Below, piece after piece: positions 53,414 through 53,663 of a stretch of 58,713 bases of DNA (its first letter is position 1; the number at the start of each line of letters is the position of its first letter). The position numbers were made by a program, and so were the translations under genes. The stretch is from an uncultured Clostridia bacterium. Its GTDB lineage: Bacteria; Bacillota; Clostridia; RGIG7378. Location: positions 1 to 58,713 of the forward strand of contig CAZCOE010000023.1 of assembly GCA_964500525.1 (NCBI GenBank). Direction: 5' to 3'. A model generated the notes under the pieces. That model was not told the origin of the DNA, ran no database searches, and was given only the letters and a program-made list of their open reading frames with translations.

Positions 53414-53663
53414 TCTTCGGTACTTTTGACCGCCCAAAAGTACCGGGAAAAGGCGCCGCTCCCGGCGAAGCTTTGCGACCCAGTGAATAGTGAAGAGTGA
53501 AGAGTGAAGAGTTCTGGTCCCCATGATCCAGAGATCGAATGATGAAGCGATGCCCTAAGAACCCGAAGCGGTAGCTATGCTCCCCGGCGCAGCATAGCTG
53601 CGACCCAGTGAATGGTGAAGAGTGAAGAGTGATGAGTGAAAAACTCTGGTCCCCACGTTCCTT
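53414..53663 (-). repeat. Locus D of the modular repeat family (two full units, minus orientation, pointing to gdpP)
   Basis: Unit D1: hairpin modules at 53414-53481, heptamers AGTGAAT (AGTGAAG)x3 at 53482-53509, inverted Box A at 53510-53529. Unit D2: 9-bp-stem hairpin at 53573-53599, five heptamers at 53607-53641, inverted Box A at 53642-53663. The reverse complement of 53414-53490 is about 90% identical to 312-388. Confidence 0.88.

Follow-up and report, generated by a model that had tools for sequence, protein, structure and literature searches.

A mosaic block of heptamer and hairpin repeats inserted between divergent gdpP and ABC-exporter genes of an uncultured Clostridia bacterium carries a derivative of a covarying three-hairpin element

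The window analyzed here (58,713 nt) is the whole of one contig, C23, of a ~1.8-Mb Clostridia MAG (G000; 1.79 Mb, 113 contigs), and both of its ends break within repeats of the family described below. The spacer under study separates gdpP (51331–53334, minus strand), encoding a c-di-AMP phosphodiesterase with GGDEF_GdpP, DHH and DHHA1 domains, from a divergent gene for an ABC exporter subunit with ABC_membrane and ABC_tran domains (53785–55484, plus strand). The start of gdpP is probably the ATG at 53334, which follows a GGAGG. Each gene is preceded by a promoter-like site: TTAGCA and TG-TACAAT, 16 nt apart, on the minus strand (53373–53400; conserved in all related genomes), and TTGCTA and TAAAAT, 17 nt apart, on the plus strand (53737–53765; sequence conserved in the related genome G002). 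The flanking sequences 53331–53418 and 53665–53790 are unique in the genome, and the repeat block is therefore delimited to 53414–53668 (255 nt). It ends 13 nt from the gdpP promoter-like site and 68 nt from that of the exporter. Alignment shows a putative non-coding insert that sits between two conserved, divergent promoter-like sites, leaving both intact, and that replaces the DNA directly upstream of the gdpP −35 box.

All repeat features of the block lie on the minus strand. Read toward gdpP, its first half consists of the unit A box GAGCAAAGGAACGTGGGGACCAGAGTT (53642–53668), which forms the outer end of the block and runs into unique flank from 53665; the remainder of unit A (53600–53641), made up of five heptamers (53607–53641) and a GGGTCGC junction (53600–53606); the sequence AGCTATGCT-GCGCC; and GGGAGCATAGCTACCGCTTCGGGTTCTTAGGGCATCGC (53547–53584), a 5′ fragment of a long hairpin element. 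The second half consists of the unit B box TTCATCATTCGATCTCTGGATCATGGGGACCAGAACT (53510–53546), four heptamers, CTTCACT CTTCACT CTTCACT ATTCACT (53482–53509), and a "tail" (53419–53481). This tail, a variant defined from an alignment of ~40 genomic copies, contains a degenerate P1-type hairpin, GGGTCGCAAAGCTTCGCC, a shortened P2, GGGAGCGGCGCC, the T/C run TTTTCCC and, at 53419–53444, the P3 hairpin GGTACTTTTG-GGCGGT-CAAAAGTACC, an exact match that is 1 of 34 genomic copies and the conserved end hairpin of a three-hairpin element whose stem pairs covary across species. The tail scored 33.8 bits with covariance model R1 and 30.2 bits with R2.

The first-pass annotation had singled out 53414–53490 as an inverted near-copy of sequence at the left end of the contig (312–388, plus strand), and the resemblance is real: the reverse complement of the former and the latter are identical in 72 of 80 aligned columns. 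The first hairpin loop differs by a 3-nt indel and a single substitution; the remaining differences are a C/T change, an indel of 1 nt within the T/C run and an offset of 2 nt at the border with the heptamers. Both copies have an unbroken 10-bp stem, GGTACTTTTG/CAAAAGTACC, and the partner scored 38 bits with R1 at 319–383. Because the 26-nt P3 hairpin occurs 34 times in the genome (≤3 mismatches) versus 0 times for a backwards-read control, the resemblance is far beyond chance. The two sites are not a private pair, as the tail composite is present in ~25–30 copies. In most of the 34 copies the hairpin GGTACTTTTGGGCGGTCAAAAGTACC is preceded by GCGAAGC-loop-GCTTCGCC-GGGAGCGGCGCCTTTTCC(C), as at 53419–53481 and 319–383, and ~10 copies belong to a longer element, ..CATGGGAGCATAGCTACCGCTTC-GGGTTCTTAGGGC-ATC-GCCCTAAG-TCGTGCTCCGCGCGTCGAAACAGCGGCGCC-TTTTCCC-GGTACTTTTG-GGCGGT-CAAAAGTACC. 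Judged by these alignments, what had been described as a 75-bp near-copy is a short variant of this ~88-nt element, whose three predicted hairpins we designate P1, P2 and P3.

Comparison with 10 intact long copies revealed how the two halves of the block relate to each other. The GGGAGCATAGCTACCGCTTCGGGTTCTTAGGGCATCGC fragment corresponds to the 5′ part of the long element and breaks off in the 3′ arm of P1; GGGAGCGGCGCC-TTTTCCC-P3 is the 3′ part of that element; and unit B stands between them, cutting the element inside the P1 hairpin. The block is thus best explained as one long three-hairpin element that would have been split in its first hairpin by a box-heptamer unit, with a second unit preceding it. 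The fragment recurs with the same breakpoint, ..GGGCAYCGC|TTCRYCATTCGA.., at at least seven other loci (on C63, C48, C95, C73, C75, C86 and C79), at one of which, on C75, the 3′ continuation CGTGCTCCGCGCGTCGAAACAGCGGCGCC is intact. This recurrence implies that the split arose once and that the composite was copied later. The split junctions have a TCGCC microhomology in common.

Two other features that had been proposed for the spacer, an exchangeable hairpin module and a conserved junction, found no support in the form in which they had been described. The arms AGCTATGCT (53591–53599) and AGCATAGCT (53573–53581) do pair in the predicted fold, forming a second hairpin at 53573–53599. Its 3′ arm, however, comes from the long-element fragment, and the 5′ arm is the middle portion of an ordinary hairpin of the GCGAAGC-TAT-GCTTCGC type; this second hairpin is not an exchanged module. 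The supposedly conserved junction, TTCACTGGGTCGC, does not pair and is an uncommon form of TTCACTG(G)CGAAGC (given as GGGTCGC, a minor form of GGCGAAGC). Of 206 arrays with at least three heptamers, it is present after 6, compared to 47 for the usual form.

No genomic locus matches the entire block at above 80% identity. Instead, its segments find their best partners on different contigs: 53416–53460 on C85 (100% identity), 53461–53476 on C60 (97%), 53482–53541, which includes the unit B heptamers, on C59 (100%), 53542–53571 and the unit B box on C78 (98%), 53573–53606 on C66 and C63 (89–92%) and 53615–53668, with the unit A box, on C112 (96%). These matches show the block to be a patchwork of recently copied segments.

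The block belongs to an abundant family. G000 contains 210 arrays of at least three NNTCACN heptamers, 160 of which have exactly four heptamers in fixed order, and ~160 family blocks together make up 37 kb, or 2% of the genome; 56 of these blocks are no more than 600 nt away from the end of a contig. A typical unit starts with a box of ~30 nt (..GGAACGTGGGGACCAGAACT; ..TCGAGCAAAGGAACGTGGGGACCAGAACT) and continues with four heptamers ending in ATTCACT-G, followed by a GC hairpin or by a linker that leads into the next unit. Perfect GCGAAGC/GCTTCGC stems number 131 and carry more than 20 different loops, and some copies add the ~88-nt three-hairpin element ending in GGTACTTTTG/CAAAAGTACC. Unit orientation is uniform within 110 blocks and mixed in 9. 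In agreement with the first-pass annotation, the two arrays of the spacer have TTCACT on the minus strand and thus face gdpP; this orientation has no general meaning, since of the blocks between codirectional genes 20 are antisense and 9 sense, and 11 further blocks lie in divergent and 11 in convergent spacers (counts limited to blocks with reliable neighbors and based on crude ORF calls).

To place the block in an evolutionary context, we compared the locus with that of related genomes. gdpP and the ABC exporter gene are divergent neighbors in every relative found, with amino-acid identities of 88% for G002 (three assemblies), 76% for two further species and 74% for G001 and G003. In six related genomes the spacer measures ~190–200 nt, retains the promoter-like sites and is free of units, compared to 450 nt in G000, which shows that the block is, in all likelihood, a species-specific insert. 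The DNA beside the block could not be aligned with G002, and a candidate relic box in the G002 spacer (cattattcgattcgtccc) was rejected as too weak a resemblance. We found no conspecific strain: the exact gdpP protein is nowhere else on record (the nearest is 88% identical) and the flank pattern is absent from metagenome contigs. Among five Oscillospiraceae MAGs, synteny was not conserved and provided no empty site for a distant relative.

A second locus behaves differently. Family repeats fill the spacer that extends from the groEL stop codon to a conserved hairpin, GGGCTC..GAGCCC, in each of the four species of the genus, and their content differs from species to species (G000 C17:1590–1840; L096 in G002, L097 in G003 and L098 in G001); in G000, the first heptamer lies 3 nt past the stop codon. 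The heptamers themselves are species specific, being TTCACT in G000 and G003, AACACTA in G001 and degenerate in G002, which holds few, degenerate copies; G003 has long, variable arrays of 12–16 units. The empty gdpP–ABC spacers, the differing groEL spacers and the species-specific heptamers together indicate gain, loss and replacement since the species split, and show a family that has evidently been active since these species diverged. The first-pass annotation had argued that the spacer does not reflect simple decay of one ancestral insertion, and this view is upheld: the unit-free spacers of six relatives, the differing segment partners and the internal breakpoint shared with at least seven other loci fit recent copying plus recombination.

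Our analyses next centered on the three-hairpin element. A covariance model of the 88-nt core yielded 52 matches in G000 (~10 of full length), 25 in G001, 9 in G002 and 15 in G003, and in 56 other genomes of the class gave two weak matches, in one genome only. Homologs in the sister species G002 and G003 differ from the G000 copies by compensatory changes. Specifically, in a genus set of 28 copies, 96.5% of cells pair and double changes occur at 14 of 26 pairs, a count that overstates independence because it comes from related copies in alignments that had been fitted to the model. None of 500 shuffles reached the observed level of covariation in the genus, and no slid register came close. A second model and a pattern scan detected wider relatives in many MAGs of uncultured Oscillospiraceae and Clostridia from the guts of ruminants, humans and termites, with the consensus GGGGTCCAGGGGC-NNN-GCCCCTGTGTCGTTTTAAGGGGG..GGGGGAGAATCGAAACTCCCCC..GTTTTTGCTACTTTTG-NNNN-CAAAAGTAGG. 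These relatives are multicopy and frequently found at contig ends; 93% of cells pair, and double changes occur at 17 of 26 pairs, with the same caveat on independence. In this wider set, the loop and linker sequences TCGAAA and GTTTTTG are constant while the stems vary. The hairpin stems are thus kept by compensatory change. G·T cells outnumber A·C cells (23 versus 8 in the genus set, 16 versus 3 in the wider set), indicating that the strand that folds is the TTCACT strand. In G000, this folding strand is the strand of negative GC skew in 85 of 138 blocks, a weak bias.

The wider-family element is mostly located between convergent genes. In G002, G003, G026 and G095, a convergent gene has its stop codon 2–10 nt from the P3 end. 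One genome, G013, carries two 324-nt copies of the wide element (L099 and L100; C9:67573–67896 and 95423–95746) that are 92.6% identical, 27.8 kb apart and in the same orientation, with a TTCACT-type heptamer triplet between them at 73386; the 324-nt relative has no terminal inverted repeats. In G015, two ~350-nt relatives (L106 and L111; C82:6492–8692) are inverted around a 2-kb segment. The gene between them was considered as a recombinase and discarded, as it encodes a 236-aa DUF6873 protein. Rfam gave no match at E ≤ 1 for the long copies or the G013 relatives, the only hits in the window being a tRNA and an L21 leader, and the wide consensus had no match in phage or plasmid records, which speaks against a phage or plasmid origin. 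The three-hairpin element is apparently undescribed. What is new here is that the tail of the gdpP spacer block is a derivative of this covarying element, and that the element is widespread in gut Clostridia.

We searched the genus for an enzyme that might mobilize the repeats. A PF01797 search found no intact Y1 transposase in the four genomes, with nothing at all in G001–G003, which argues against mobilization of the RAYT/IS200 type. The sole Y1 match in the genus is a 47-aa IS200-type remnant downstream of rpsF-ssb-rpsR (L001; G000 C69:3995–4141). G000 also contains no RT, TnpB, IS110 or IS256 genes (no TnpB domain above cutoff); its single rve gene and single DDE gene do not adjoin repeats, and the genes bracketed by inverted blocks included nothing suggestive.

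The closest known counterparts are the REP, BIME and REPIN sequences of Enterobacteria and Pseudomonas (Nunvar 2010, PMC2817692; Bertels & Rainey 2011, PMC3116915; Di Nocera 2013, PMC3733652). Like these, the family comprises high-copy, extragenic, GC-rich hairpins that are joined with other short motifs in mosaic blocks, have conserved stems and free loops, lie between genes and at 3′ ends, differ among related species and break short-read assemblies. Short extragenic palindromes are abundant, as in REPs: the 1.8-Mb genome has 131 perfect hairpins of the form GCGAAGC-loop-GCTTCGC, in addition to the 34 P3 hairpins. Unlike REPs, however, the hairpins have no GTAG/CGTC tag at their foot, the 47 of 206 arrays noted above running directly into the G(G)CGAAGC arm, and there is no RAYT gene in any of the four genus genomes. 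Moreover, BIME units alternate in orientation, whereas units here are co-oriented (110 uniform versus 9 mixed blocks), and the present family adds a fixed four-heptamer module and the 88-nt three-hairpin element.

BOX elements of Streptococcus pneumoniae, which have the structure boxA-boxB(n)-boxC and are thought to fold as a whole transcript, are similar in consisting of non-coding modules, of which the internal ones vary in number, in being scattered through Firmicute intergenic regions and in having neither transposon-type terminal inverted repeats nor a known transposase. They share no sequence similarity with the present family, however, and have a different module set, and here it is separate short hairpins that are conserved. 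Cyanobacterial STRR sequences are intergenic heptamer repeats. Related in kind are the TAACTGA heptamer repeats of Beggiatoaceae, Cyanobacteria and Bacteroidetes (MacGregor 2015, PMC4679880). Similar to our arrays, these repeats are built of 7-nt units in tandem, with two to six units in a set (more in some species), at more than 100 intergenic sites and with no evident means of spread; they differ in heptamer sequence, and the G000 array is a fixed 28-nt module, fused to the box and hairpins and copied as a unit, that is not concentrated directly upstream of start codons.

Other mobile systems correspond less closely. The units run box, heptamers, hairpin without inverted ends, and the lack of terminal inverted repeats argues against a classical MITE. 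IS200/IS605-derived elements such as PATEs and TnpB guide-RNA ends differ in that neither TnpB nor an intact Y1 transposase is present here, and the orientation bias of 85 versus 53 blocks is much weaker than that of IS200/IS605 single-strand transposition. An integron attC site flanks promoterless cassettes and forms a single long, imperfect hairpin that has extrahelical bases and RYYYAAC/GTTRRRY cores. The three-hairpin relatives resemble it in position, beginning a few bases past a stop codon, and in that the folding strand is opposite to the sense strand of the gene; unlike attC, they form three separate hairpins and are found beside housekeeping genes such as groEL.

Taken together, we favor, with a probability of roughly 60%, a reading in which the block is a REP/BIME- or BOX-like mosaic repeat that spread by hairpin-dependent, strand-specific copying through a postulated factor and was reshuffled by recombination, with neutral or mildly modulatory consequences for gdpP. 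The modules would be copied and pasted by a trans-acting factor that reads the hairpins on one DNA strand, the TTCACT strand, and that would not be a RAYT/IS200-type enzyme. Copies may then have been reshuffled by gene conversion, or by illegitimate recombination where they have GC-rich microhomologies, for example TCGCC, in common. The effect on gdpP is most likely neutral or mildly modulatory; the single block is an ordinary copy of its family and would probably have little influence on the gene. The family as a whole takes up 2% of a small genome, breaks up the assemblies of uncultured gut Clostridia and shows turnover from one sister species to another, and it has none of the known mobilizing enzymes that we looked for. 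Its three-hairpin fold is kept by compensatory change from the genus to distant Oscillospiraceae-like MAGs, and the element is in no catalog. Identification of whatever copies or reads it would add a new mode of small-repeat spread or a new structured nucleic acid.

A more far-reaching version, which we offer as speculation with low odds, takes the ~88-nt core to be the recognition module of an undescribed, RAYT-independent, hairpin-guided and strand-specific mobile system of gut Clostridia. In this core, the first hairpin would be the variable part, followed by a GC clamp whose loop is of the TCGAAA type and by the conserved end hairpin. Such a system would settle behind stop codons and, in this genus, recruit species-specific heptamer arrays that co-evolve with a binding protein.

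The covariation data could also be explained if the three-hairpin element, including the tail at 53419–53481, were a functional structured RNA, that is, a multicopy sRNA or a UTR module such as a 3′-end stabilizer or processing signal, with the heptamers as a protein platform on the transcript. All three stems are held by compensatory changes in the genus and in distant Clostridia MAGs, the TCGAAA and GTTTTTG loops and linkers are conserved while the stems change, G·U-type pairs exceed A·C, and the start of the element 2–10 nt past a stop codon in several genomes is a 3′ UTR position. Read on the opposite strand, moreover, every species variant of the heptamers gives NAG with a period of 7 nt. 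We nevertheless regard this reading as unlikely. In most of the copies that hug a stop codon, the G·U-favored strand is antisense to the neighboring gene, so that a read-through mRNA would carry the less well-paired strand. There is no evident promoter or intrinsic terminator, this locus has a truncated and split copy that lies upstream of a promoter, the z-scores of the folds are unremarkable (−1.5 to −2.3), and Rfam contains no match. A HutP-type protein reading NAG at a 7-nt period was considered and excluded, as the genus is without a HutP homolog.

Alternatively, the repeats might act as DNA docking arrays, in which heptamers and box are iterated sites for a lineage-specific protein (nucleoid-associated, regulatory or terminase-like) that organizes or regulates many promoters, including that of gdpP. 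The concerted shift of the heptamer sequence between species, as if it co-evolved with a binding protein, the fixed number of four heptamers in 160 of 210 arrays and the location of the block 13 nt upstream of the gdpP −35 box are in keeping with this idea. It is rendered distinctly improbable, however, by the inconsistent gene contexts (divergent, convergent, sense and antisense) and by the six relatives that run the same conserved gdpP promoter without units. In addition, a 7-bp period does not hold sites on one helix face, no candidate protein was identified, and the covariation of the hairpins would be left unexplained.

A reading of the block as an inert relic, left by an old insertion that decayed in place and resembling 312–388 through common descent only, would suit the many truncated or degenerate copies (for example, the non-pairing GGGTCGC arm and the truncated P2) and the few degenerate copies retained by G002, but is largely refuted, and very improbable, given segments 96–100% identical to copies on other contigs, a site empty in all six relatives and 131 hairpins with perfect stems but differing loops.

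Several additional features were observed in the genome and the window. About 20 blocks open with a "HEAD" motif, GAAACTTGTCAAGTTTTTGGAC..GAAGAGTGAAAACGATATAACCGCC, a short form of which is present in the window at 58368–58390; the motif marks block 5′ ends on C8, C9, C13, C18, C22, C43, C48, C51, C54, C57, C65, C66, C73, C74, C75 and C102 of G000. It holds a perfect 15-bp palindrome, AAACTTG-T-CAAGTTT, possibly an operator-like site or an element end. An outward promoter in this motif was discounted because inspection of the sequences by eye revealed no convincing −10 box. The L21 leader in the window (Rfam RF00559, 38.6 bits; 24660–24742) lies downstream of a same-strand repeat block (24773–24869; heptamers from 24779). 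Between 12100 and 14400, the window contains two tandem paralogous stretches, 1413–1416 nt apart and 74–78% identical. Finally, stretches with a 12-nt period (GTAGGNGCTGCN-like) are present in apparently coding DNA at 13144–13359, 29259–29427 and 45059–45178, which suggests repetitive surface-protein genes.
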